The notes below the pieces were generated by a model. The model ran no database searches. It was not told the DNA's origin and saw only the letters and a list, made by a program, of their open reading frames with translations. A stretch of DNA of 64,000 nucleotides from a phage, in sequence record OZ336095.1; one strand, given 5' to 3'. Of the stretch, positions 7,761-62,252 are shown piece after piece. Each line of letters begins with the position of its first letter. The stretch's first letter is position 1. A program made the translations under genes and the position numbers.

Positions 7761-8158
7761 GGCTCTTAAACAGACACAGCTTTGTAGTAAAGCGTAAAGT
7801 CTCTGAAGACGGTTATTATAATGATGATGGTGATTGGGTAGCTTCACAAGATATTGTAGAGGTTAACTGTAAAGGTAATATCCAGCCATATATCAAAGGT
7901 TCTGTAAAGAATGGTACACAGATTGCTTTACCGGAAGGTATTAGACTAACCGATACAAGAATCCTGTATACTACATATAAACTTAGAACTTCAGATGATG
8001 TAGAGTGGAATGAGTCTGATATTGTTATGATTGATGGTCATGAGTATGAAGTATTTATGACTATGGATTGGTCACAGCAATTAGCCCATACGTCCCATTA
8101 TGAATATATCATTATTAGAAGGGATAAAATGAATGCAGTTAGAAACAGCGGAACTTGA
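7757..8158 (+). CDS. head-tail joining protein (putative)
   Basis: 133-aa ORF, ATGA overlap with upstream gene; synteny only. Confidence 0.35.
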   Translation: MRLLNRHSFVVKRKVSEDGYYNDDGDWVASQDIVEVNCKGNIQPYIKGSVKNGTQIALPEGIRLTDTRILYTTYKLRTSDDVEWNESDIVMIDGHEYEVFMTMDWSQQLAHTSHYEYIIIRRDKMNAVRNSGT

Positions 8159-8732
8159 AAAAGGTCTAGTTAGAACCTTAGTGGATGTTATTGGTCACAG
8201 ATTAGCTCGTGATAAAAATAATAGACCAAACGTAATTAGAGCTTACCCTTCTGATAACTCAAATGACAAAGGTTTAAAACCTGACCAGCCATTTATTACC
8301 GTATATTGTCAAGATGCTGCAACACCTTATGGTTGGGTTCTTGATAAATTTGTTGAAGATGATGTAGTTTGTTACAGAATTGCTTTTCAGATTCCTGTAT
8401 TGATTACGGTAAATGGTAAAGGTGCTCACAGTATTATGCTTGAGCTTAAACAAAGATTAGAGATGAGTTCAGTCAGAGATTTAATCCTTGAAGAGACAGG
8501 AGCTACAGTATTAGACACTGGAGCAATCCCTAATGACTACACTTATCTCAATACAGATTTCGAAAATTCTGCGCCTCTTGTTGTAACTCTTGTAAAAAAC
8601 TCAGTCCTGAAAGATGAACGTGGAAGTATTATTGAGCGTGTCATTGTTGATGGTGAGTTGGTTTATGAAGAAGGGCAAGAGCCACCAGAATATACTATCC
8701 ATCTAGATGTAGACTCCAAAGGGGTAAAATAA
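8133..8732 (+). CDS. tail completion / neck protein (putative)
   Basis: 199-aa ORF overlapping upstream gene by 26 nt; synteny only. Confidence 0.35.
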   Translation: MQLETAELEKGLVRTLVDVIGHRLARDKNNRPNVIRAYPSDNSNDKGLKPDQPFITVYCQDAATPYGWVLDKFVEDDVVCYRIAFQIPVLITVNGKGAHSIMLELKQRLEMSSVRDLILEETGATVLDTGAIPNDYTYLNTDFENSAPLVVTLVKNSVLKDERGSIIERVIVDGELVYEEGQEPPEYTIHLDVDSKGVK

Positions 8733-10085
8733 ATGTGGAATCCAATTGTTAATGTAGATATTACATTGAACACCGCAGGAACTACAAGAGAAGGTTTTGG
8801 TTTGCCACTATTCTTAGCTTCAACAGATAACTTTGAAGAAAGAGTGCGTGGTTACACTTCCTTAACTGAAGTTGCTGAAGATTTCGATGAGAATACTGCT
8901 GCATATAAGGCTGCTAAACAACTTTGGAGTCAGACTCCTAAAGTAACTCAGCTTTATATTGGTAGACGCGCTATGCAGTACACTGTATCAATTCCTGATG
9001 AGGTTACTGAGAGTACGGACTACTCAATTACTGTAGCTGTCGGTGGAGGAATGTCACAACCATTCCAGTACACCTCTCAATCTGAAGATACTGCCGAGAA
9101 GGTATTACAACAGTTTAAAACACAGATTGAAGCTGACCAATCAATTAAAGATAAAGTATCAGTCAATGTTACTGGTAGCAACGGTTCTGCCACAATGGTC
9201 ATCTCCAAAGCTGGTGACAATGATTTCGTGAAGGTAACCACTACAGCACAAACTGTATCTGTTGCAAGCACAACTGCTGATACAGCGTCAACTGCTCTGG
9301 CAGCTATTGAAGCTTATTCTACCGACTGGTATTTCATTGCAGCAGAAGACAGAACTCAACAGTTTGTCTTAGCAATGGCTTCTGAGATTCAGGCTCGTAA
9401 GAAAATCTTCTTCACAGCTAACTCTGATGTAGCAGCACTACAAGGTACAGAATTAAACAGTGCAAATGATGTTCCAGCACAGCTTGCTAAGAGTATGTAT
9501 ACTCGCACAGTTTGCTTGTGGCATCACACAGCGGCAGAAGATTATCCAGAGATGGCATATATTGCTTATGGTGCTCCATACGATGCAGGGTCAATTGCTT
9601 GGGGTAATGCTCAGTTGACTGGTGTAGCTGCTTCTTTACAGCCAGCTAATAAGAGACCTCTGACAAGCATTCAGAAGTCAGCTTTAGATGCACGTCACTG
9701 TAACTTTATCGACCTTGATGGTGGTGTTCCAGTGGTTCGTAGAGGGATTACTTCTGGTGGGGAATGGATTGATATCGTCCGTGGTGTTGACTGGTTAGAA
9801 TCAGACCTGAAAACTTCTCTGAGAGACTTGCTAATTAACCAGAAGGGTGGTAAGATTACTTATGATGATACTGGCATTACCCGTATTCGTCAAGTCATTG
9901 AAACCTCTCTGCAAAGAGCAGTCAACAGAAACTTCCTGTCATCTTACACAGTTAATGTTCCTAAAGCCTCTCAAGTTGCTTTGGCAGACAAGAAAGCTCG
10001 TATCCTGAAAGACGTTACCTTCGCAGGTATCTTAGCAGGGGCTATCTTGGATGTTGACTTGAAAGGTACAGTGGCTTACGAATAA
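8733..10085 (+). CDS. tail sheath protein (putative)
   Basis: 450-aa ORF immediately upstream of tube-sized ORF, chaperone pair and tape measure; synteny. Confidence 0.5.
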   Translation: MWNPIVNVDITLNTAGTTREGFGLPLFLASTDNFEERVRGYTSLTEVAEDFDENTAAYKAAKQLWSQTPKVTQLYIGRRAMQYTVSIPDEVTESTDYSITVAVGGGMSQPFQYTSQSEDTAEKVLQQFKTQIEADQSIKDKVSVNVTGSNGSATMVISKAGDNDFVKVTTTAQTVSVASTTADTASTALAAIEAYSTDWYFIAAEDRTQQFVLAMASEIQARKKIFFTANSDVAALQGTELNSANDVPAQLAKSMYTRTVCLWHHTAAEDYPEMAYIAYGAPYDAGSIAWGNAQLTGVAASLQPANKRPLTSIQKSALDARHCNFIDLDGGVPVVRRGITSGGEWIDIVRGVDWLESDLKTSLRDLLINQKGGKITYDDTGITRIRQVIETSLQRAVNRNFLSSYTVNVPKASQVALADKKARILKDVTFAGILAGAILDVDLKGTVAYE

Positions 10086-10100
10086 TAGAGGTAAATTGGA

Positions 10101-10547
10101 ATGGCTATGTATCAGCAATATTCCCCTAAAGACGTTGTATGTAGCTGGAATGGTATTGCCATTGAAGGCTTTGCCCCAGACTCATTTTTACGTCTACAGA
10201 GAACATCACCACTTATCACACCAGTTGTAGGTGCAGGTGGTCAGGTTGCTCTGACAAGAAATGCAGACAAGACAGGTACTATTGAGATTGAGCTAATGCA
10301 GACTTCTCTCTCTAATCAGATGCTTTCTGCAATTCAAGCTAAACAAGACAATATGGAACTTGAAGAAGATATCTCTTCTAACTTCGTAATCTACGACCCA
10401 TCAGGCTCTGTTCTGGCAACTGGTATTAATGCTTGGTTGCAGGAACTACCACAGATTGAACTTGGTCGTGACCAGAACTCTAAAACTTGGATTTTTGGTT
10501 GTGAGAAGCTAGACTACACTTCAACAATTCCAGCGTCAAGTGTTTAA
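10101..10547 (+). CDS. tail tube protein (putative)
   Basis: 148 aa; followed by strong terminator and G/T chaperone pair. Confidence 0.5.
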   Translation: MAMYQQYSPKDVVCSWNGIAIEGFAPDSFLRLQRTSPLITPVVGAGGQVALTRNADKTGTIEIELMQTSLSNQMLSAIQAKQDNMELEEDISSNFVIYDPSGSVLATGINAWLQELPQIELGRDQNSKTWIFGCEKLDYTSTIPASSV

Positions 10548-10560
10548 TAAATCCTATAAG

Positions 10561-10592
10561 GGGGAGACTTTAAAAGGTCTTCCCCTTTTTTG
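10561..10592 (+). terminator. intrinsic terminator after tail tube gene
   Basis: GC-rich hairpin GGGGAGAC...GTCTTCCCC followed by TTTTTTG. Confidence 0.6.
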
Positions 10593-10619
10593 TTTCTTTT
10601 AAAGTATTAAGGAATCACA

Positions 10620-11018
10620 ATGAAAACAGAATCTAGAGTAATTAATGGTAAGAAAGTAAATATCGTTCTGCTTGGGGCAAGAGATGGTATTAAGATGTCT
10701 ATGAAGTTGGGTAAAATTGTTGTTCCAACCTTTGCACAGATGCTATCAAGTCTGACTGATAAAGATAAGAAAGAGGCTCCAATGGTTCCATTTAAAGAAC
10801 TTGTTGAAGCTTGTTTTGACAGAATTGAAGAAATTAACCTTGAAGAAATGGCTACCCTGTTATTTCAAGGGGCAACTGTTGACGACTTCCCACTTAATAT
10901 TGATACGTACTTCCAAGCAAACTACGGTGAGTTTATTGATTACTTAGCATTTGCGCTGGAGGCAAACTTCGGAAGTTTTTTCGAAGCAAGCATTTTCAAA
11001 AGCCTAACTTCTCAGTAA
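10620..11018 (+). CDS. tail assembly chaperone (G-like)
   Basis: 132 aa between tube and tape measure; contains slippery heptamer near 3' end. Confidence 0.5.
   Translation: MKTESRVINGKKVNIVLLGARDGIKMSMKLGKIVVPTFAQMLSSLTDKDKKEAPMVPFKELVEACFDRIEEINLEEMATLLFQGATVDDFPLNIDTYFQANYGEFIDYLAFALEANFGSFFEASIFKSLTSQ
10976..10982 (+). other. candidate -1 programmed ribosomal frameshift site (T TTT TTC)
   Basis: X XXY YYZ heptamer in frame of 10620 ORF; -1 frame is open from here into the 11021 ORF (read codon by codon, no stop). Confidence 0.45.
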
Positions 11019-11020
11019 AC

Positions 11021-11259
11021 ATGGGTAACACTCTACAGACACCACTAACTGATGCTGCTGTAGAGGCAACCTATGAAGAAGCAGACGAGATGAAATTTGT
11101 GCTTGCTATTTATGGTATGGAAGGGTGTAAAGAAACACTTGACCAACTCTTTGCTATGACATTCTCTGATTTATTATCATTGAGACAATTTCTTGAGATT
11201 CAGAGGTCGTATAAAGAGGAAATTGCTTACAACGAACTTAGAAGAGCAGGAAAAATGTA

Positions 11260-11260
<1 letters not shown>
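11021..11260 (+). CDS. tail assembly chaperone T-portion (likely expressed as G-T fusion)
   Basis: 79-aa ORF in the -1 frame relative to upstream chaperone; ends at ATG of tape measure gene. Confidence 0.45.
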
Positions 11261-19276
<8,016 letters not shown>

Positions 19277-20497: not shown

Positions 20498-22852
20498 ATG
20501 GCAGATTACAAGTTGAGTGAATTAAACTCAATCGATACAATCCGTTCAGATGACCTTCTTCATGTCAGGGTTAAAAAGAGACCTGAAATGTTGGGTGATG
20601 AAGACCGTCGAATGACCTATCAAGATTTCTTAGCATCTTTTAAACTTGAAAGATTTGTTCAGATTGCTGGTAGCACTATGACGGGTGACTTAGGAATTGT
20701 TAAGCTACTTTACGGTGGCAAGGCTGTATTCGACCCTACAGGCTCTTCTGAGATTACTGTTGGGGATGTTTTAAAGACTTTTAAAATCAACGCAAACGGC
20801 CTTAAACTAACTATTGCAGACGCTTCAAGGTCGGCAACTGTTTATCATACTTTGAATAAGCCAAGCCCTAATGAACTTGGGATGAGAACTAATGAAGAGA
20901 ATGACGCAAGGTATGCAAGACTAGCCGTGAATAATACCTTTAGAGGTACTCAAGCTATCCTCTCTGACAATGAAGCGCTCATTATTAAAAATATCACTCA
21001 AGGTGCTCCACTCTATCTTCGTGGTCAAGATGCAGATGGTACTAACAGATGGTATCTAGGTAATGATAATAGGGGTACAAATAATCTTGTATTGAAGAAT
21101 GTAAAGTCTGACGTTTCAATTGCTATTTTAGAGAATTTGGTGACAGTCAACAGAACTCTTCAAATTGCTGGCCAAGTTCAGCCTTCAAGTTTTGCTAACT
21201 TAGATGCTAGGTATTTTACCCAGACAGCAGCTAATCAGAGATTTGCGCAGTTAGCTGGTAATAACACTTTTACTGGTACTAACACTTTCTCTAATTTTGT
21301 TGCTAAGAAGAATGCTGAAGCCATCACTCTGCAAAATGTGGACACTGCTCCCTCTTTATATATCCGAGCAAGAAAGTCAGATGGGAATTATAAGTGGTAC
21401 ATTGGTAATGACGGTGATGAGAACATTTTAAAAATCTATAACTATCTAACAAAAACACAAGTCTCACTAGGTAACACTATTGCCATGAGCAAAACAGTTC
21501 AAATTGATGGTCAAGTACAACCTTCTGATTGGACTAACATTGATTCTAGATATATTCCGGCAGCCACTTTGAGTAATCTCCCTAAACTTAATGTGTCTAA
21601 TACTTTCACAAATGTGCAAACTATTGTATCTAACAACGAGGGTTTGGTATTAAGGAACTTGACACAGGGGCAGCCACTATATATCCGTGGTGTTGATACT
21701 GAGAATGTTTCTAGATGGTGGTTAGGTGTAGGTGGTCCAAACTCTAATGTGGTAACACTTAACAACAACTATTCTGACACTAAAATCTCACTTGGTGGCT
21801 CATCAGTAATGACTAATAAGAGCTTAGCTATTACTGGTCAAGTACAACCTTCTGACTTCTCTAACTTAGATGCTAGATACTATACCCAAGCTGCCGCAAA
21901 CGCAAGATATATGCTTGCAAGCATCACTGGTTCGGCTTCTGAAGCAGATGGTGGTGATGGTGTTGCATGGGATGCAAAAACAGGTCTTTATAAGGTTACT
22001 AACACCACTGGACAGTCTTCTTCACTTGTATATCACATGTTTTTAGGGACTAGTTCTACACCATCTGCACAATTAAAGTTTTCGTTTAAAAATGGTGGGA
22101 TGTGGTATAGAACATCAAGAGATGCCTATGGCTTCGAAGTTAATTGGTCTAAAGTTTACACGGAAGCACAAAAACCAACCCCTTCAGAGATTGGTGCATA
22201 CACTAAAGCTGAAACTGACCAGAAAATTGCAACAGCAATTAGTGACTCTACAGACCTTAACAAAATCTATCCAGTTGGTATTGTAACGTGGTTTAACAGT
22301 AATGTTAACCCTAATACAGCACTCCCTGGTCTAACTTGGACGTACCTGAATAATGGTGTTGGTAGAACTATCAGAATCGCAGCAGCAAACGGTTCAGATG
22401 TTGCTACAACTGGTGGTTCAGATTCTGTGACATTAGCTGTTGGTAACTTACCATCACACACTCACAGTTTCTCTGCTACCACTTCATCTTTTGATTATGG
22501 TACGAAGAACACTAACAGTACTGGTGCACATACCCATTCAGTTAGTGGTACTGCTGCATCTGCTGGGCAACACGCACACAGAATTTCACAGGGTGACAAC
22601 GCTAACGTTTCATCAGGTAGAGTCGCATCTTCAAACTCTGCTCAGACCCATGTTGGTTGGACTGAAAATGATGGTGTTCACACCCACTCAGTTAGTGGTA
22701 CTGCTGCATCTGCTGGTGGACATGCTCACACGGTTGGTATTGGTGCTCACAGCCACACAGTTAGTGGTAACACTGGTGGTACAGGTTCTGGTTCAGCATT
22801 TAGTGTTACTAACCAGTTCTACAAGTTAATGGCTTGGGTAAGAACTGCTTAA
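20498..22852 (+). CDS. long tail fibre protein with three internal ~100-aa repeats and His-x-His C-terminal domain
   Basis: ATG 20498 with RBS AAGAGGA (track ORF extends upstream through the terminator); three repeats each ending '..GQVQPS.F.NLDARY.TQ.AAN'; C-terminal 'PSHTHSFS', 'GAHTHSVSG', 'GGHAHTVGIGAHSHTVSG'. Confidence 0.65.
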   Translation: MADYKLSELNSIDTIRSDDLLHVRVKKRPEMLGDEDRRMTYQDFLASFKLERFVQIAGSTMTGDLGIVKLLYGGKAVFDPTGSSEITVGDVLKTFKINANGLKLTIADASRSATVYHTLNKPSPNELGMRTNEENDARYARLAVNNTFRGTQAILSDNEALIIKNITQGAPLYLRGQDADGTNRWYLGNDNRGTNNLVLKNVKSDVSIAILENLVTVNRTLQIAGQVQPSSFANLDARYFTQTAANQRFAQLAGNNTFTGTNTFSNFVAKKNAEAITLQNVDTAPSLYIRARKSDGNYKWYIGNDGDENILKIYNYLTKTQVSLGNTIAMSKTVQIDGQVQPSDWTNIDSRYIPAATLSNLPKLNVSNTFTNVQTIVSNNEGLVLRNLTQGQPLYIRGVDTENVSRWWLGVGGPNSNVVTLNNNYSDTKISLGGSSVMTNKSLAITGQVQPSDFSNLDARYYTQAAANARYMLASITGSASEADGGDGVAWDAKTGLYKVTNTTGQSSSLVYHMFLGTSSTPSAQLKFSFKNGGMWYRTSRDAYGFEVNWSKVYTEAQKPTPSEIGAYTKAETDQKIATAISDSTDLNKIYPVGIVTWFNSNVNPNTALPGLTWTYLNNGVGRTIRIAAANGSDVATTGGSDSVTLAVGNLPSHTHSFSATTSSFDYGTKNTNSTGAHTHSVSGTAASAGQHAHRISQGDNANVSSGRVASSNSAQTHVGWTENDGVHTHSVSGTAASAGGHAHTVGIGAHSHTVSGNTGGTGSGSAFSVTNQFYKLMAWVRTA

Positions 22853-56336: not shown

Positions 56337-58703
56337 ATGCGCATGGTAAATGACCACGCAGAAGTGATTAAGAGTTCAACTTCTTTAGAGACGTCTCAAG
56401 CACAGATTACAATGACACCTGAGATGTTCAGCCTTTTGAGTTCTGGTGTATATACCTTTAAAGAAAGGGCAGTGATTCGTGAACTGTCATGTAACGCAGT
56501 AGATGCTCAGAAAGAAGCTGGAAAAGAGAACATCCCATTCCATGTGCATTTACCTACTCGTTTTGAGCCTTACTTCGAAGTTCGTGATTTTGGAACTGGA
56601 TTGACTCATGATAAAGTTATGAGTTTGTACCTAAACTATGGAGCTTCTACGAAGAATGACTCTAATGACTACATTGGTGCAATGGGTATCGGCTCAAAGT
56701 CACCATTTGCAATTGCTCAGTCATTCACAGTATCTAGTTATGTTGACGGTGTTGTTAATAAGTACTCTGTTTATCTTGAGAATGGTATCCCTCAAGTAAC
56801 TAAGCTGACAACTAACCAAACAAAAGAACCTAATGGTTTAGCTGTACGTGTGGCAGTTGCTGACCACCGTATCTCAAAGTTCTTTGAAGAAGCTGGGAAT
56901 GTGTACTCATACTTCACTGTAAAACCAGAAAGTAATATTGAGTACGACGATGTATTAGCAGATATGAACGTAATTGCCCGTGAAGAAGGTGTTTATGATG
57001 CCATGATTCATAAGCACAGCTGGCGTTCTAGTGATAACAGGACAGAGTTTAATGTGGTGATGGGTAACATTGCCTACCCTGTTAATATGGAAGCATTACT
57101 TGGCGATGATTTCTTCAAAGTATTGCCAGAATTTTTCCGTAGGAGCGTAGACCTTGTAAACATCTACATGCCTATTGGTTCAGTTGCTATTGCAGCTTCT
57201 CGTGAAGCATTGCAGATGAATGACACGACAAAAAATGTTATCATTGAGGCTACTAAAAAGATAACTGAAGCCATTACAAAGGATGTTATCAAAAAGATTA
57301 ACAATCAGCCCACACTCATGGATGCTGCACAGGCTTATGCTGAGTTGCGTTTGAACTCACGAGAAATGTTTAATGCTGTGTGTCCAAAGCTAGAGTGGGG
57401 AGGCGTTAAGCTTGATTCTCTGGAAGAAGAGTTGCTAAACATTCGTCGCGGGATTATCTACGCAGAAGACGGCTCAGTCATTTATGAACGTGACGGTAAA
57501 GGTAATATTAAGGTTGATAGGAACGGGAACAATATCCCTAAAGTAGATTATCTTTATAACCCAGTTGCTTATGTCAAGTTCAACTCTTTAGAGAGTAAGA
57601 TTCGTGCAACAGCACTTTCCTACACTCAAGAGGCAAGTATGTTCAATATCTTTGGTGCAATGCGTAAAAGCCAAATTGAACAGTTTTTGTTCGTGATTAA
57701 TGACCGTCGCAATAAAAATGGTACTGAGAAGACTGTAGGCCGCAATCAGATTCTGCGTGGTGCATGTCGAGACTACGCCAGTGAGTCAAGTCTGTTTCAC
57801 AGATACAATGGTATTGTGTTTGTATTCTCGACTGAAAAAGAGTTAGACGACCTAATCAATCTACACAAACTTGATAAAAGCTTGTTAAAGATTGTGAAGA
57901 TGTCTGATAAGGAGCACCATTATCAGCGTAAAGAAGCTGTAAGAGGTGTTGTAAAACTCTGGAAAGCTGTTCCAGCAGAAGGTGTAGCTTCCTATAAAGA
58001 GGTTTCAGAGGACTTTGATACAATTGAAGAACCTCAGCTTTACATTAAGGCAATTGGTGACACAGTTGATGGCGAATGTTTTTGCTCATCTCCAGAAGAT
58101 GTAGCCAAGTCAGTTGCTAATGTTACAGGGAAGACAGTCTATGTTTTCCGAAAAGCAAATTGGAAAAAGATACCAGAAGACTGGATTGAAGTAGATGAGA
58201 AACTCTTGAACGACAGCTTAACTGATGTTCATTGGATTAATCATAACAGGTATATGACACGTATCTATATGAATGGTGTCCTTGACCTTACAAGCAGTTG
58301 GATTATTGCCAGAAACTTTACGTTCAATAACAGGAAGATTTCTCGTGGCTATTGCTATTCACGGGATACAAACAAAACTATCTTCCTAGAAGGAAATGAA
58401 GATGCTGTAGAGGCAATGTTCGGTAAAATCCAATACGTTGCTGCACCATTTGCATACACTTATACTATTAGTGTATTGAAAACTTTGAAAGACTGTCTTG
58501 ACAATGATACAAAGCTTTACAAGAAAATTAAGAAAGCTGGTGACCGTATGGTCATTAAGGTGACAAACTACCTTTCAAAAAGAAAACAAGAAAACTTCTT
58601 GCTTTCTCATTTAGATTGGAATAAAGTGTCACCCATCGAAGTGAGTAAGTTCTTAGGCTTTGATGTAAAATGTGTTCCAGAAGGGACTACAATTTATGAT
58701 TAA
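56337..58703 (+). CDS. rIIA: rIIA-like protein (GHKL-type ATPase fold N-terminus)
   Basis: N-terminus parallels T4 rIIA: 'VIRELSCNAVDAQ', 'VRDFGTGL', 'DYIGAMGIGSKSPF'; 788 aa; RBS AAGAGGA. Confidence 0.75.
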   Translation: MRMVNDHAEVIKSSTSLETSQAQITMTPEMFSLLSSGVYTFKERAVIRELSCNAVDAQKEAGKENIPFHVHLPTRFEPYFEVRDFGTGLTHDKVMSLYLNYGASTKNDSNDYIGAMGIGSKSPFAIAQSFTVSSYVDGVVNKYSVYLENGIPQVTKLTTNQTKEPNGLAVRVAVADHRISKFFEEAGNVYSYFTVKPESNIEYDDVLADMNVIAREEGVYDAMIHKHSWRSSDNRTEFNVVMGNIAYPVNMEALLGDDFFKVLPEFFRRSVDLVNIYMPIGSVAIAASREALQMNDTTKNVIIEATKKITEAITKDVIKKINNQPTLMDAAQAYAELRLNSREMFNAVCPKLEWGGVKLDSLEEELLNIRRGIIYAEDGSVIYERDGKGNIKVDRNGNNIPKVDYLYNPVAYVKFNSLESKIRATALSYTQEASMFNIFGAMRKSQIEQFLFVINDRRNKNGTEKTVGRNQILRGACRDYASESSLFHRYNGIVFVFSTEKELDDLINLHKLDKSLLKIVKMSDKEHHYQRKEAVRGVVKLWKAVPAEGVASYKEVSEDFDTIEEPQLYIKAIGDTVDGECFCSSPEDVAKSVANVTGKTVYVFRKANWKKIPEDWIEVDEKLLNDSLTDVHWINHNRYMTRIYMNGVLDLTSSWIIARNFTFNNRKISRGYCYSRDTNKTIFLEGNEDAVEAMFGKIQYVAAPFAYTYTISVLKTLKDCLDNDTKLYKKIKKAGDRMVIKVTNYLSKRKQENFLLSHLDWNKVSPIEVSKFLGFDVKCVPEGTTIYD

Positions 58704-58782: not shown

Positions 58783-59892
58783 ATGACTACTAAAACTAAA
58801 GCACAGATTGACGCAGAAATTTACAAACTGGTTAAAGAGGGCAAGCTGACTAAAACCGCTATTGCACAGAAATTTAACACCTCAACCCGTTCAGTCGGTC
58901 GTGCTGTAGAGCGTCATGAAGCAACCTTAAAAGGGAATAAGAAGGTGACTTCTACACCAGCTACGAAGACTTTGAAGCAAGTTGCTAAGACCTTTAAAAA
59001 GAAAGCTGACAAACCAGTTGAAAAGGTTGTTAAAGAGTCTGTACAGAAAGCTCCAGTAAATAAACTACATGAAGCTATGCAGAAAGATGACAAGATTGAG
59101 TACATGATTACTGGTGACTCTGTAATTATGACTTATGGTTCAGAGTCTGAAATTGTTGAGTCTACTCATCCGAACTATCAAGAGATTGTAGTTCATGTTG
59201 TGAAAGGTGAGTTTAAGAAAGCCTTTGAACTGATGAACATTCGTAAGTCTATCGAAAACTTCACTCAGGGTGCTATCACAATCAAAGGTGATAAGTTATT
59301 CTACGGTGCTGTTGAGATGCGTTCTACTCTGGTTGACCGTATTCTTCACATGATGAAGACTGGAGATAAAGGCTTTGAACGCCTTGTGATGTTCTTCGAA
59401 AAACTGATGGAAAACCCATCTAAAGATTCCGTAGAACAACTTTGGGGCTTCGTATCTCACCTTGATGTTGAAATTGATGAAGAAGGCTACATCATTGGTT
59501 GGAAGAAAGTCTCTACTCGTGAAGGCAAGCTGGTTGACTCCCACACCTACAGAGTACCTAATGATTTGGGTAACATTGTAGAAATGCCACGTTGGATGGT
59601 TGATAATAACCGTAACGTGACTTGCTCTCAAGGTCTTCACGTTGGTGCTTGGGATTATGTTCGCTGCTTCTCAGGTGATACAATTCTTAAGGTTCGTGTT
59701 CATCCACGAGACGTTGTATCCGTACCAACTGATTACAACGATATGAAGATGCGTTCATCACGTTATGAAGTTGCAGCAATCGTTGATAATCAACGTAAAG
59801 TACTGAAAGCATGGGATGGTAAGACTGAAGCTTTACATGTCATCGTTGGTACTGCTGGTGAACTTATCTCTCAGCGTAAACGTGAAAGCTAA
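58783..59892 (+). CDS. rIIB: rIIB-like protein
   Basis: follows rIIA; N-terminus 'AEIYKLVKEGKLTKTAIAQKFNTSTRSVGRAV' resembles remembered T4 rIIB N-terminus; 369 aa. Confidence 0.55.
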   Translation: MTTKTKAQIDAEIYKLVKEGKLTKTAIAQKFNTSTRSVGRAVERHEATLKGNKKVTSTPATKTLKQVAKTFKKKADKPVEKVVKESVQKAPVNKLHEAMQKDDKIEYMITGDSVIMTYGSESEIVESTHPNYQEIVVHVVKGEFKKAFELMNIRKSIENFTQGAITIKGDKLFYGAVEMRSTLVDRILHMMKTGDKGFERLVMFFEKLMENPSKDSVEQLWGFVSHLDVEIDEEGYIIGWKKVSTREGKLVDSHTYRVPNDLGNIVEMPRWMVDNNRNVTCSQGLHVGAWDYVRCFSGDTILKVRVHPRDVVSVPTDYNDMKMRSSRYEVAAIVDNQRKVLKAWDGKTEALHVIVGTAGELISQRKRES

Positions 59893-59907
59893 TAAGTAAT
59901 TTCTTAA

Positions 59908-59931
59908 AAGGCTGCTTCGGCGGCCTTTTTT
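59908..59931 (+). terminator. intrinsic terminator (UUCG tetraloop type)
   Basis: AAGGCTGC ttcg GCGGCCTT followed by TTTTT. Confidence 0.6.
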
Positions 59932-59992
59932 ATTTGTATTTTGTGCAGAGTGCTGTATAATTGTTGTCACGATAAACTAAACAGGAGAACCA

Positions 59993-60541
59993 ATGAAGAA
60001 ATTGATTCTAGGTTTGTGCTTAATGTTTACAGCACACTTATCTTATGCAGTTGACTGCCCAGAGCTATCAATTAGCCAAAAAGTAAACATGTTAAAAGCT
60101 TACCAGTATGGTGAGAATAACATGGGTAAAGGTTGGGGTATAACTCTAGCTGCTATAGCCTTACAAGAGTCAGAGTTAGGTCTGAAGGTAGAGAATAAAA
60201 AGACACATGATTATGGTATTTTCCAGAATCACTTGAAGACTGTTGTAAAGCGTAACAAAATTAGCCCTAATGTGGCTAAAAAGAAACTCTTAAAAGATTT
60301 TGACTATGCTGCGAAGGAAACGCACAAAGAACTTGAGTTTTGGACAAAGGTGCATGGTCAGCCAAAGTCAAAGAAGACTTTACAAAAAGTTTTAGCATCA
60401 TATAATGCTGGGTATTCGTACAGAATCCCTAAAGCTAAGAAGTATTCTCAAGATGTCTATAACAACATGAAAGTTATTGCTCAATGTGAATTTGCAACAA
60501 ACATTTCTAAGGTAAATCATGAAAAAATTAAGAAAGTCTGA
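59993..60541 (+). CDS. lytic transglycosylase (SLT domain) with N-terminal signal peptide
   Basis: 'MKKLILGLCLMFTAHLSYA' signal peptide; SLT motifs 'AIALQESELG', 'DYGIFQ', 'ASYNAGY'. Confidence 0.65.
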   Translation: MKKLILGLCLMFTAHLSYAVDCPELSISQKVNMLKAYQYGENNMGKGWGITLAAIALQESELGLKVENKKTHDYGIFQNHLKTVVKRNKISPNVAKKKLLKDFDYAAKETHKELEFWTKVHGQPKSKKTLQKVLASYNAGYSYRIPKAKKYSQDVYNNMKVIAQCEFATNISKVNHEKIKKV

Positions 60542-61214
60542 TGAAGTACTGTGTCATGCTTATGACTTACATCCTCATGAGTTAGGTCTTGATTCCTGTG
60601 TATGGACTCCAGAACAGTGTAGGGATTTTGAAGACACCGCAAGAGAGGTTGTATGTTCACTCGAAGAGTTCCACACATCAGAGCCAATTGTTAATGTTGT
60701 AGATAAAGAGACTGGACAAGCTATAGGTGTAAGTCGTGATAGTTTAGTCATAGTCAATAAAGACCTTGTAGAAAAAGGGAATCTCATCTTAGCAGATATT
60801 GATGGTGTTCTTACAAATTTTAATCACGAAGATTGTTCAACGGAATTGACTGACGGTTCATTCTCGCAGTATACCAATCTTCTTGATTCTGTAAGAGCAA
60901 AGCCGACGTATGTTTTCAATATCATTGATGCAATTGCTAATCATGCTGCTGTTGGACTCTTGACAGCGAGAGGTGAATCTCAGAGAATACCTACTGAGAT
61001 GTTTTTAAGGCATAACACAGAGCATGATTACATGCTTTTTATGCGTGGTTTTGGGACTAACTCTATAAGTGCAGAAAGTTTGAAAGTAAGGATGATTCAG
61101 TCTTGCATTCTTCCTTACTTTAATATAGTATGCTTTATAGAAGACACAGAGAAGAATGTTCAGAAGGTAAACAGAATACTTCCACACATCAAAACCATGT
61201 TAGTTAAACATTGA
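60519..61214 (+). CDS. HAD-superfamily phosphatase-like protein
   Basis: HAD motif I 'ILADIDGVL', motif II 'GLLTARG', acidic motif 'FIEDTEKN'. Confidence 0.45.
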   Translation: MKKLRKSDEVLCHAYDLHPHELGLDSCVWTPEQCRDFEDTAREVVCSLEEFHTSEPIVNVVDKETGQAIGVSRDSLVIVNKDLVEKGNLILADIDGVLTNFNHEDCSTELTDGSFSQYTNLLDSVRAKPTYVFNIIDAIANHAAVGLLTARGESQRIPTEMFLRHNTEHDYMLFMRGFGTNSISAESLKVRMIQSCILPYFNIVCFIEDTEKNVQKVNRILPHIKTMLVKH

Positions 61215-61224
61215 GAGAAAACTT

Positions 61225-61689
61225 ATGAACAATATCATTACGGTAGCACTGGACGTTACGGCAAACAAATCTGAAGTAGTTCGTAAAATGATTCAAGGTA
61301 ACTTTGAAGGTAAAATTTTCCGTGCTGTTAATGTAAAAGCTGATGGTAGCATTCGTGAATATCGTGCATTGTTGAACGTTAAGAAGCACGTAAAAGGTGT
61401 TGGTTCAACGACTGCACACAAAGAAAACCTGATGACTATCTATGATATGGGTAAGGCTTCAGAGTTAGGTGCTGAAGGTATCGTTAAAGAAGGTGCTCCG
61501 TATCGCTCTTTCAATCTGGAAACTACTCTTATGCTTTCCTTTACAAGTGGTTCTAAAACAATCACTTATCTCTTTACTGATGCTGCAACGGTATCTGCTA
61601 TTAAGGATAGCACTGTCAAAGCTGGCGTAGTTGCTGCTGCAAAAGCTTCTTCGATGGCTGCGAATATCCTTGCTAAAGTCCTCGGTTAA
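61225..61689 (+). CDS. hypothetical protein
   Basis: 154-aa ORF followed by terminator. Confidence 0.35.
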   Translation: MNNIITVALDVTANKSEVVRKMIQGNFEGKIFRAVNVKADGSIREYRALLNVKKHVKGVGSTTAHKENLMTIYDMGKASELGAEGIVKEGAPYRSFNLETTLMLSFTSGSKTITYLFTDAATVSAIKDSTVKAGVVAAAKASSMAANILAKVLG

Positions 61690-61700
61690 GGTTAAGATAC

Positions 61701-61723
61701 AGGCTCCTTCGGGAGCCTTTTTC
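61701..61723 (+). terminator. intrinsic terminator (UUCG tetraloop type)
   Basis: AGGCTCC ttcg GGAGCCT followed by TTTTC. Confidence 0.6.
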
Positions 61724-61741
61724 ATTTCAGGAGATTGTTAA

Positions 61742-62089
61742 ATGACATTTAAAGAGTTTTGTCAAGCTACTTTCATAATTGTTTTCTTAGTTGGGGCAGG
61801 TGTCTGGGGAGGATACTCTTACAGAGACTACCAAGTTGCTGAAACTGAGCTAAATAATGAGAAACTAATAAGTGTTGCCAAAGATGCTTATCAGGAAGGT
61901 TTAGCCACACTCAGCACCAATTACAAAAATGATTTGAAAGATGTGCTTGCTAAGAATAAGCACACAAAAGAGGTACTAACATATGAAAAAACTAAGCCAG
62001 AGTTTTATAATGTTTGTGTTACTGATAATTATGTCAGGGTGTTCAACGAACAAAGTGAACAGTACATTCAAAAACTCCCAAGTAAGTGA
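61742..62089 (+). CDS. i-spanin-like protein (N-terminal TM + periplasmic coiled coil), tentative
   Basis: 'FIIVFLVGAGVWGGY' TM segment near N-terminus, then charged helical region; overlapped by lipoprotein ORF. Confidence 0.35.
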   Translation: MTFKEFCQATFIIVFLVGAGVWGGYSYRDYQVAETELNNEKLISVAKDAYQEGLATLSTNYKNDLKDVLAKNKHTKEVLTYEKTKPEFYNVCVTDNYVRVFNEQSEQYIQKLPSK

Positions 62090-62252
62090 GAGTGATAAGT
62101 ACACTCAAGAAGATTCAAGATTCACTATCAAAGGTAATACTGGTAGTGATGTGGCAGCAGCCCTTGAGTTCTATCGTGATGGATTTTACCAGTGCACAAT
62201 CAAAGCTAATAACCTTATTGATATGATTTTATTAGGAAATAAACAGCAATGA
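61983..62252 (+). CDS. o-spanin-like lipoprotein, tentative
   Basis: starts inside 61742 ORF in another frame; 'MKKLSQSFIMFVLLIIMSGC' signal peptide with lipobox-like MSGC. Confidence 0.3.
   Translation: MKKLSQSFIMFVLLIIMSGCSTNKVNSTFKNSQVSESDKYTQEDSRFTIKGNTGSDVAAALEFYRDGFYQCTIKANNLIDMILLGNKQQ

Follow-up and report, generated by a model that had tools for sequence, protein, structure and literature searches.

The 64,000-nucleotide stretch analyzed here (sequence record OZ336095.1, the window in what follows) is a segment of a Felixounavirus genome (Ounavirinae). This report concerns the gene at positions 59993–60541, a counterpart of the vs.1 gene of bacteriophage T4, for which we propose a product that acts on peptidoglycan in the host periplasm. 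The 3.6 kb around this open reading frame (ORF) are 96–98% identical at the nucleotide level to many phages of E. coli, Salmonella and Shigella, including ULIM3, VpaE1 and AYO145A. The encoded protein is not new, as sequences already deposited are 100% identical to it. Relative to AYO145A, 17 codons of the ORF differ, 15 of them by synonymous changes and 2 by Lys/Arg swaps, which indicates that this is a genuine coding gene under purifying selection. The features of the locus are collected in Table 1.

Table 1. Genes, signals and protein motifs around the vs.1-family gene (nucleotide positions in the window).
Feature	Position	Strand	Description and basis
rIIA	56337–58703		upstream of rIIB
rIIB	58783–59892		immediately before the terminator at 59906–59929
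Rho-independent terminator	59906–59929	+	closes the rIIA-rIIB unit; 10-bp stem, TTCG loop, T-run
Predicted sigma-70-type promoter	59934–59961	+	−35 TTGTAT (59934–59939), 16-nucleotide spacer, −10 TATAAT (59956–59961)
Shine-Dalgarno sequence AGGAG	59983–59987	+	5 nucleotides ahead of the ATG; also in KPS64
Coding sequence of predicted vs.1-family (PHROG 600) GH23 peptidoglycan glycosidase	59993–60541	+	182-residue precursor, ATG start; ORF list, profile match, structure model
Predicted signal peptide, residues 1–19 (MKKLILGLCLMFTAHLSYA)	59993–60049	+	predicted signal peptidase I cut after A19; heuristic and family conservation
Predicted mature domain, residues 20–182	60050–60538	+	18.65 kDa, isoelectric point 9.7; C22-C165 a probable disulfide
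E59-S60 codons	60167–60172	+	predicted catalytic general acid, C-terminal end of helix 48–60
D73-Y-G-I-F-Q78 codons	60209–60226	+	on a β-hairpin
S136-Y-N-A-G140 codons	60398–60412	+	family-1 motif III
Y151 codon	60443–60445	+	family-1 motif IV, equivalent of EtgA Y133
PseT-like polynucleotide kinase gene	60519–61214	+	23-nucleotide overlap with the 3′ end of the vs.1-family gene; common transcription unit
PHROG 2267 ORF	61225–61689	+	third gene of the unit; function not assigned
Terminator	61701–61718	+	ends the three-gene unit, just 5′ of the spanin genes; annotated in AYO145A too
i-spanin and o-spanin, overlapping pair	61742–62089 and 61983–62252	+	1.2 kb downstream of the vs.1-family gene

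The gene is preceded by a strong terminator, as the initial annotation of this DNA had described, and by a predicted host-type promoter located directly after the early rII genes. The same annotation had called the promoter signals weak. This holds for the −35 element, which matches the consensus at 3 of 6 positions, but not for the −10 element, which is the perfect consensus. The scan for promoters had a cut-off of 4/6 for the −35 element, so this promoter was not listed and was read from the sequence instead. The annotation of AYO145A carries an equivalent terminator and promoter, the latter with three mismatches. In the Mooglevirus phage KPS64, where the orthologous protein is 76% identical, the terminator, the −10 element and the Shine-Dalgarno sequence are retained, and the −35 element is TTGAAA. 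The order of the vs.1-family gene and the kinase gene is kept in Felixounavirus, Mooglevirus and Kolesnikvirus.

The protein matches the profile of PHROG 600 with an E value of 1e-57, residues 1–170 being aligned with positions 1–176 of the 178 in the profile. PHROG 600 carries the label 'unknown function'. A BLASTP comparison with T4 Vs.1 (NP_049725) gives a full-length alignment with 32% identity and an E value of 2e-16. By these matches the gene is the Felixounavirus orthologue of T4 vs.1, a family that was already known and that the initial annotation had missed. A marginal SLT similarity of vs.1 was described by Nolan et al. in 2006, who also refer to a PSI-BLAST match to lysozyme found before (PMC1524935). 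The gene is an ordinary one in this respect, belonging to a known family with a predicted SLT-like domain that was flagged about twenty years ago. NCBIfam gives no meaningful match for either this protein or T4 Vs.1, and a search of the literature on transglycosylases of Felix O1 and Felixounavirus found nothing relevant.

The family is widespread. A homologue is present in 1899 of 50,697 phage records, and the hosts are all Gram-negative. These records include T4-like phages of Escherichia, Klebsiella, Aeromonas, Acinetobacter and Vibrio, as well as Ackermannviridae and all Ounavirinae genera tested. The size of the family was taken from an exhaustive search of cluster representatives, 1265 of which match at E ≤ 1e-3; a word-indexed protein search gave 21 matches only. 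Nearly all of the representatives are stand-alone proteins of about 180 residues. The median length is 181 residues, and 137 of 170 members have 150–200 residues, comparable to the 182 residues and single domain of the Felixounavirus protein. The gene neighbors differ among T4, Ackermannviridae (Kuttervirus), Ounavirinae, the Vibrio phage SUMAE and a jumbo phage. Since the neighbors are not conserved between clades, the vs.1 gene behaves as an independent module. A functional tie to the adjacent rII genes or to the spanins was also considered, and was rejected as unsupported because the neighbors are wholly different in T4, Kuttervirus, SUMAE and the jumbo phage.

The names given to family members vary among the records. 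Homologues in Salmonella phage Maynard_110 (2902–3519) and in phage teqsoen are named 'RegB site-specific RNA endonuclease' or 'endoribonuclease', names that were probably carried over from the adjoining T4 gene regB. Other records use 'lysin', 'putative lysin' or 'hypothetical'. The present analysis corrects the mis-annotations as 'RegB', 'endoribonuclease' and 'lysin', which are spreading. One member is found under the organism name Campylobacter coli (GCA_053226485.1), at 8001–8582 of the 214,766-bp contig ACBEZJ010000004.1. This contig also has a chimallin gene of the PhiKZ type at 10019–11953, about 1.4 kb from the family member, and looks like a nucleus-forming jumbo phage within a bacterial assembly.

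In the classification of Blackburn and Clarke, family-1 lytic transglycosylases (LTs) are defined by motifs I (E-S), II (G-L-M-Q-like), III (A-Y-N-x-G) and IV (Y). All four are present in the protein, as E59-S60, G75-I-F-Q78, S136-Y-N-A-G140 and Y151. The first three had been recognized in the initial annotation, the second of them as D73-YGIFQ78, and Y151 is found in addition. Among 170 family sequences, E59, Y137, G140 and Y151 are invariant. Residue 60 is Ser or Thr in all 170 and N138 is present in 160; S60, G63, G75 and N138 are nearly invariant.

Comparisons of profiles and of models point to the same fold. A profile built from 78 family sequences finds EtgA (8urn) as the best match in the Protein Data Bank (E value of 8e-7), followed by c-type lysozymes (about 3e-3). 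In the profile alignments, E59 falls on lysozyme E35, and D73-YG coincides with D52-YG of hen lysozyme. The Pfam SLT profile is matched by 58 of the 78 family members at E ≤ 0.01, the best E value being 2.8e-12. Every top match in Foldseek is a GH23 protein, and the neighbors in BFVD are phage proteins described as 'transglycosylase SLT domain'. In the secondary structure of the model, the catalytic Glu ends helix 48–60 and is followed by a three-stranded sheet, which is the arrangement in lysozyme. Together, the profiles and the model give strong support for a GH23 lysozyme-like fold with predicted muralytic activity.

A non-catalytic function of this fold was considered as well. The protein might bind peptidoglycan or serve as a decoy, for example by blocking the tail lysozymes of superinfecting phages or by titrating periplasmic inhibitors of lysozymes or LTs. 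T4 superinfection exclusion uses the periplasmic proteins Spackle and Imm, a precedent that would suit a gene product that appears to be early and exported. On the other hand, the Glu is invariant (170/170) and the groove residues S60, G75, Y137, N138, G140 and Y151 are conserved as in an active enzyme, which makes a purely binding function highly improbable.

The type of reaction is less clear than the fold. The residues E59, N68, D73, Q78, Y137-N138-A-G140 and Y151 correspond to the full active-site set of EtgA, namely E42, N54, D60, Q65, Y116-N117-x-G119 and Y133 (PMC10880428). The equivalence of D73 with D60 was set by eye (DYGIFQ here, DIGIMQ in EtgA), as the HMMER alignment is shifted at this place, and the spacing from the Glu to the Asp is 14 residues here compared to 18 in EtgA. 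EtgA has been termed a 'hybrid', with the Glu of LTs and lysozymes and also D60, the counterpart of lysozyme D52 and of an Ala in Slt70, and its product chemistry has yet to be settled (PMC10880428). An Asp at position 73 is thus a feature of lysozymes and not of LTs. With D73 located at the position of lysozyme D52 and EtgA D60, the label 'lytic transglycosylase' is insecure, and a hydrolytic muramidase or a hybrid enzyme is also possible. The protein had initially been called a lytic transglycosylase; the GH23/SLT-type domain in this description stands, but the transglycosylase chemistry exceeds what the sequence can support, and 'GH23 peptidoglycan glycosidase' is the safe name.

This position varies within the family. 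Residue 73 is Asp in 57 of the 170 sequences, Ser in 94 and Ala in 15, the last group including T4. When positions 73 and 78 are taken together, the states are S/H (59 sequences), D/Q (51), S/Q (32) and A/Q (9, including T4). By these residues, the Felixounavirus enzyme is of a lysozyme/EtgA-like flavor and T4 Vs.1 of an Slt70-like flavor, and the flavors may separate lysozyme-like from transglycosylase-like chemistry. T4 Vs.1 is otherwise similar to the Felixounavirus protein, with the same size, a signal-like N-terminus, the motifs E-S, YG.FQ, SYN.G and Y, and a stand-alone gene in an early region. It differs by the Ala in place of D73 (A/Q rather than D/Q) and by the absence of the C22/C165 pair. 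The gene is flanked by regB and vs in T4, compared to rIIB and the PseT-like kinase gene here. The host family-1 LTs (Slt70, MltC, MltE and MltF) have accessory domains or a lipid anchor, whereas the Felixounavirus protein is a minimal domain. Goose-type lysozyme is listed together with the family-1 LTs (Pfam SLT PF01464, GH23) among the close known systems.

The N-terminus of the precursor has the features of a cleavable signal peptide, in agreement with the initial annotation. It consists of MKK, with two Lys residues, an 11-residue core rich in Leu, Ile and Phe (LILGLCLMFTA), and the segment HLSYA, after which the mature protein would begin with VD. The best 8-residue Kyte-Doolittle mean in the core is 2.96, and the small residues S17 and A19 occupy the −3 and −1 positions. 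A signal-like N-terminus is found by our heuristic in 151 of 164 homologues. In the alignment of the 170 family sequences, 147 of 158 have Ala, Gly or Ser in line with A19. In the AlphaFold2 model, residues 1–19 have predicted local distance difference test (pLDDT) values below 50 and are outside the fold, and the core from about residue 25 to residue 165 has values above 90.

Other types of N-terminus fit less well. A signal-anchor-release (SAR) sequence, one of the options offered in the initial annotation, would be a weakly hydrophobic anchor of some 18–20 residues or more, rich in Gly, Ala and Ser. In comparison, the core here is short and rich in Leu, Ile and Phe, with a conserved Ala/Gly/Ser cleavage site, and an uncharged stretch of at least 20 residues is found in only 2 of the 164 homologues. 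A lipoprotein modified at C9 was discarded, since the residues L6-G7-L8-C9 do not form a lipobox and the signal would be too short; a lipobox-like string occurs in only 5 of the 164. Cys9 itself (codon 60017–60019) is conserved in the signal core across Ounavirinae (LGLCL or LLLCLL) but is rare in the wider family, with 16 of 156 sequences.

Two other Cys residues are located in the mature protein. C165 is present in 79 family sequences, and in 77 of these another Cys lies no more than a few residues from where the mature protein begins. Among the 91 sequences that lack C165, only 17 have a Cys near the mature N-terminus (pair counts 77/17/2/74). C22 and C165 probably form a structural disulfide, and a co-occurring pair is expected from a disulfide made in the oxidizing periplasm. 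The conserved signal and the Cys pair together suggest that the vs.1-family protein is exported to the periplasm.

The lysis genes are dispersed in Felixounavirus. A Felix O1-type endolysin, a lysozyme, is annotated in AYO145A at 21125–21589, about 17.5 kb from the vs.1-family gene, and a tblastn search with this endolysin finds no match in the window. The initial statement that the gene is outside the lysis cassette is thus true but trivial in this genus, with the endolysin at this distance and the spanin genes 1.2 kb away. T4 gene e mutants do not lyse, and Vs.1 therefore cannot replace the endolysin in that phage.

Expression and fitness data are available for two orthologues. T4 vs.1 is classified as 'early RNA / middle protein', and the protein has been detected (PMC9697503 supplements). 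In the CRISPRi-ART study of 2025, T4 vs.1 is 'Semi-Fit', with a fitness of 0.81 and a P value of 0.099 (PMC11879866 supplements), and belongs to a set of five 'Semi-Fit' genes whose function is given as 'purely unknown function' (PMC11879866). The orthologue in the Ounavirinae phage SUSP1, AVU07_agp083, has the same gene order and is 'Not Fit' (1.02, P value of 0.28; PMC11879866 supplements). The main text of the HIDEN-SEQ paper on T4 does not mention vs.1. The separate endolysin, the early T4 vs.1 together with the host-type promoter here, the 'Not Fit' call in SUSP1 and the genetics of T4 gene e argue that this gene is not the lysis endolysin.

A function in lysis could also take other forms. 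The protein could be delivered by Sec and restrained in the periplasm until the holin depolarizes the membrane, as for Lys44 of the Oenococcus phage fOg44 and the SAR type, or it could be a second endolysin of the Kayvirus Tgl type. It is a predicted exported protein with a muralytic fold, the spanin genes are close by, and some records use the name 'putative lysin'. Kayvirus Tgl sets a precedent: it is secreted and LT-like, serves as a second lysin and has a promoter of the early type (PMC7150955). Like the Felixounavirus protein, Tgl has a signal peptide, is separate from the main endolysin and can be transcribed by host RNA polymerase (PMC7150955). Tgl, however, has demonstrated muralytic activity and belongs to phages of a Gram-positive host (Staphylococcus), and here the activity is a prediction, so that the likeness is one of functional analogy. 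The SAR endolysins (P1 Lyz and R21 of phage 21) and Lys44 are muralytic and take the Sec route independently of a holin, as is predicted for this protein. The SAR endolysins, however, are the principal lysins, are usually encoded beside a (pin)holin gene and have a long, weakly hydrophobic and uncleaved anchor, in contrast to the short, strongly hydrophobic signal of the cleavable type and the separate endolysin here. The cleavable signal and the muralytic domain of a Sec-exported accessory lysin are both present as predictions.

Several observations stand against such a function. The canonical cytoplasmic endolysin is encoded elsewhere in this genome type, knock-down scores the SUSP1 orthologue as 'Not Fit', T4 vs.1 is early, and the genetics of gene e show no replacement of the endolysin by Vs.1. 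The N-terminus is not SAR-like, with its conserved cleavage-site residue, and linkage to a holin is not conserved among the neighbors in T4, Ackermannviridae, the Vibrio phage and the jumbo phage. We therefore regard a direct function in lysis as unlikely. The initial annotation had listed a Sec-dependent lysin and a SAR lysin as options. The first is unlikely in view of the separate endolysin and the dispensability of the SUSP1 orthologue on knock-down, and the second is further disfavored by the lack of a holin gene adjoining this one. Its statement that an exported protein of the GH23/SLT type is not a typical holin-dependent endolysin is upheld as a prediction and by the separate endolysin.

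EtgA, from the type III secretion system of enteropathogenic E. coli, is the closest solved relative of the protein by sequence. The two proteins share their size, a signal peptide and the active-site set; the disulfide is reported for EtgA (PMC10880428) and predicted here. EtgA, IagB, IpgF and YsaH are encoded in secretion-system loci, whereas this gene is located in a probably early phage operon beside rIIB, the PseT-like kinase gene and the spanin genes. No secretion-system genes are found among its neighbors, and the protein is thus EtgA-like and not a member of this group.

The relationship nevertheless raises another explanation, that the protein is a 'space-making' glycosidase of the EtgA, IagB, IpgF and VirB1 type, which a partner recruits for opening the sacculus locally. 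The opening would serve an assembly that spans the envelope, for example the spanin complex, a device for superinfection exclusion or a structure related to DNA entry, and the enzyme would not act diffusely. Apart from the match to EtgA and the features shared with it (size, signal peptide, the set E/N/D/Q/Y/N/G/Y and a likely disulfide), EtgA requires EscI for stability and full activity (PMC10880428), and an enzyme restrained in this manner would account for early export being tolerated. No candidate partner was found, however, and the neighbors vary across T4, Ackermannviridae, Ounavirinae, the Vibrio phage and the jumbo phage. Moreover, E. coli is reported to tolerate elevated LT activity (PMC10139938), so that early export is plausible with no premature lysis and restraint may be needless. 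A recruited, partner-dependent enzyme is improbable on balance.

The preferred reading is that the gene encodes an early, Sec-exported, accessory periplasmic peptidoglycan glycosidase, neither a holin-dependent lysin nor a SAR lysin, and we consider this probable. A periplasmic remodeling factor during takeover had been among the initial suggestions, and it is the best fit and a plausible one, given the promoter of its own after rIIB, the early T4 vs.1, the separate endolysin and the dispensability of the gene in SUSP1. The analysis shows the ORF, its family, the fold and the conserved residues; we infer the timing, export, cleavage, disulfide formation and catalysis in the Felixounavirus phage to be as follows. 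Host RNA polymerase would probably transcribe the gene early, starting at the sigma-70-type promoter in front of it, and the PseT-like kinase gene and the PHROG 2267 ORF would follow in the same three-gene unit. Sec would take the 182-residue precursor to the periplasm, with signal peptidase I cleaving behind A19. What remains, a basic mature protein of 18.6 kDa, would adopt a GH23 lysozyme-like fold there, probably with the C22-C165 disulfide. E59 would act as the general acid in cleaving the β-1,4 bond between N-acetylmuramic acid (MurNAc) and N-acetylglucosamine of the host sacculus, with D73, Q78, Y137, N138 and Y151 lining the groove as in EtgA. As a muramidase the enzyme would yield reducing MurNAc, and as a lytic transglycosylase 1,6-anhydro-MurNAc, both being possible because D73 sits at the position of lysozyme D52. 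The glycosidase would thereby nick or remodel peptidoglycan during infection, independently of the holin and as an accessory factor.

Several points weigh against this reading. The Pfam SLT profile (PF01464) gives the protein 19.2 bits, below the gathering threshold of 21.3, and a single-sequence phmmer search of the Protein Data Bank finds no match even at E ≤ 10. The signal peptide was called with our own heuristic and by conservation among homologues, rather than with a trained predictor. The co-occurrence of C165 and the N-terminal Cys has a Fisher p value of about 1e-28, which ignores phylogeny. The early timing of the gene is a transfer from T4 combined with a promoter-like sequence that has 3/6 in its −35 element. 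The 'Semi-Fit' call for T4 vs.1 is marginal and could reflect polarity. Finally, enzymatic activity, localization and processing are predictions in every member of the family.

If the accessory glycosidase is real, the question arises what large virulent phages of Gram-negative hosts gain, in such numbers, by exporting a small glycosidase early, well ahead of their endolysin and separately from it. The vs.1 hypothesis is now concrete and testable, and comprises a location in the periplasm, a hybrid active site like that of EtgA, a disulfide that is conserved, and two active-site flavors, D/Q as opposed to S/H or A/Q. It is conceivable, though rather doubtful, that the family is a distinct class of early periplasmic 'takeover' effectors that re-tailor the sacculus, with shorter glycan strands or anhydro ends. 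Such a class would be exported by T4-like, Felix O1-like, Vi1-like and some jumbo and Vibrio phages, possibly acting at specific sites with a partner, and its function would be separate from those of the virion-associated and endolysin muralytic enzymes. Its purpose could be to prepare the envelope for the action of spanins or holins, to confer resistance against superinfection or lysis from without, or to manipulate the recycling of muropeptides. The residual interest of the gene lies in a very widespread family that has been flagged as fitness-relevant in a T4 screen.

A second promoter-like sequence is located inside the ORF of the vs.1-family gene, at 60379–60406 on the plus strand (TTTACA, a 16-nucleotide spacer and TATAAT; 11/12). 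Among the promoter-like matches in the 7.5 kb that were scanned, it ranks in the top two. It lies 113 nucleotides upstream of the kinase start at 60519 and may serve the genes downstream as an internal promoter.

The kinase gene, the small ORF and the spanin pair (60519–62252) have a similar order to pseT-pseT.1-pseT.2-pseT.3 of T4, where the spanins are pseT.3 and pseT.2, adjoining pseT. If this is so, the proximity of the spanin genes reflects linkage to the kinase gene and not to the glycosidase gene. The o-spanin ORF in the window encodes 89 residues, with a lipoprotein signal and a lipobox (LLIIMSG followed by the Cys). Its equivalent is annotated with 65 residues (198 nucleotides) in AYO145A and KPS64, starting 3′ of the lipobox and hence lacking the lipoprotein signal, and the annotation of SUSP1 gives the o-spanin its full 270 nucleotides.

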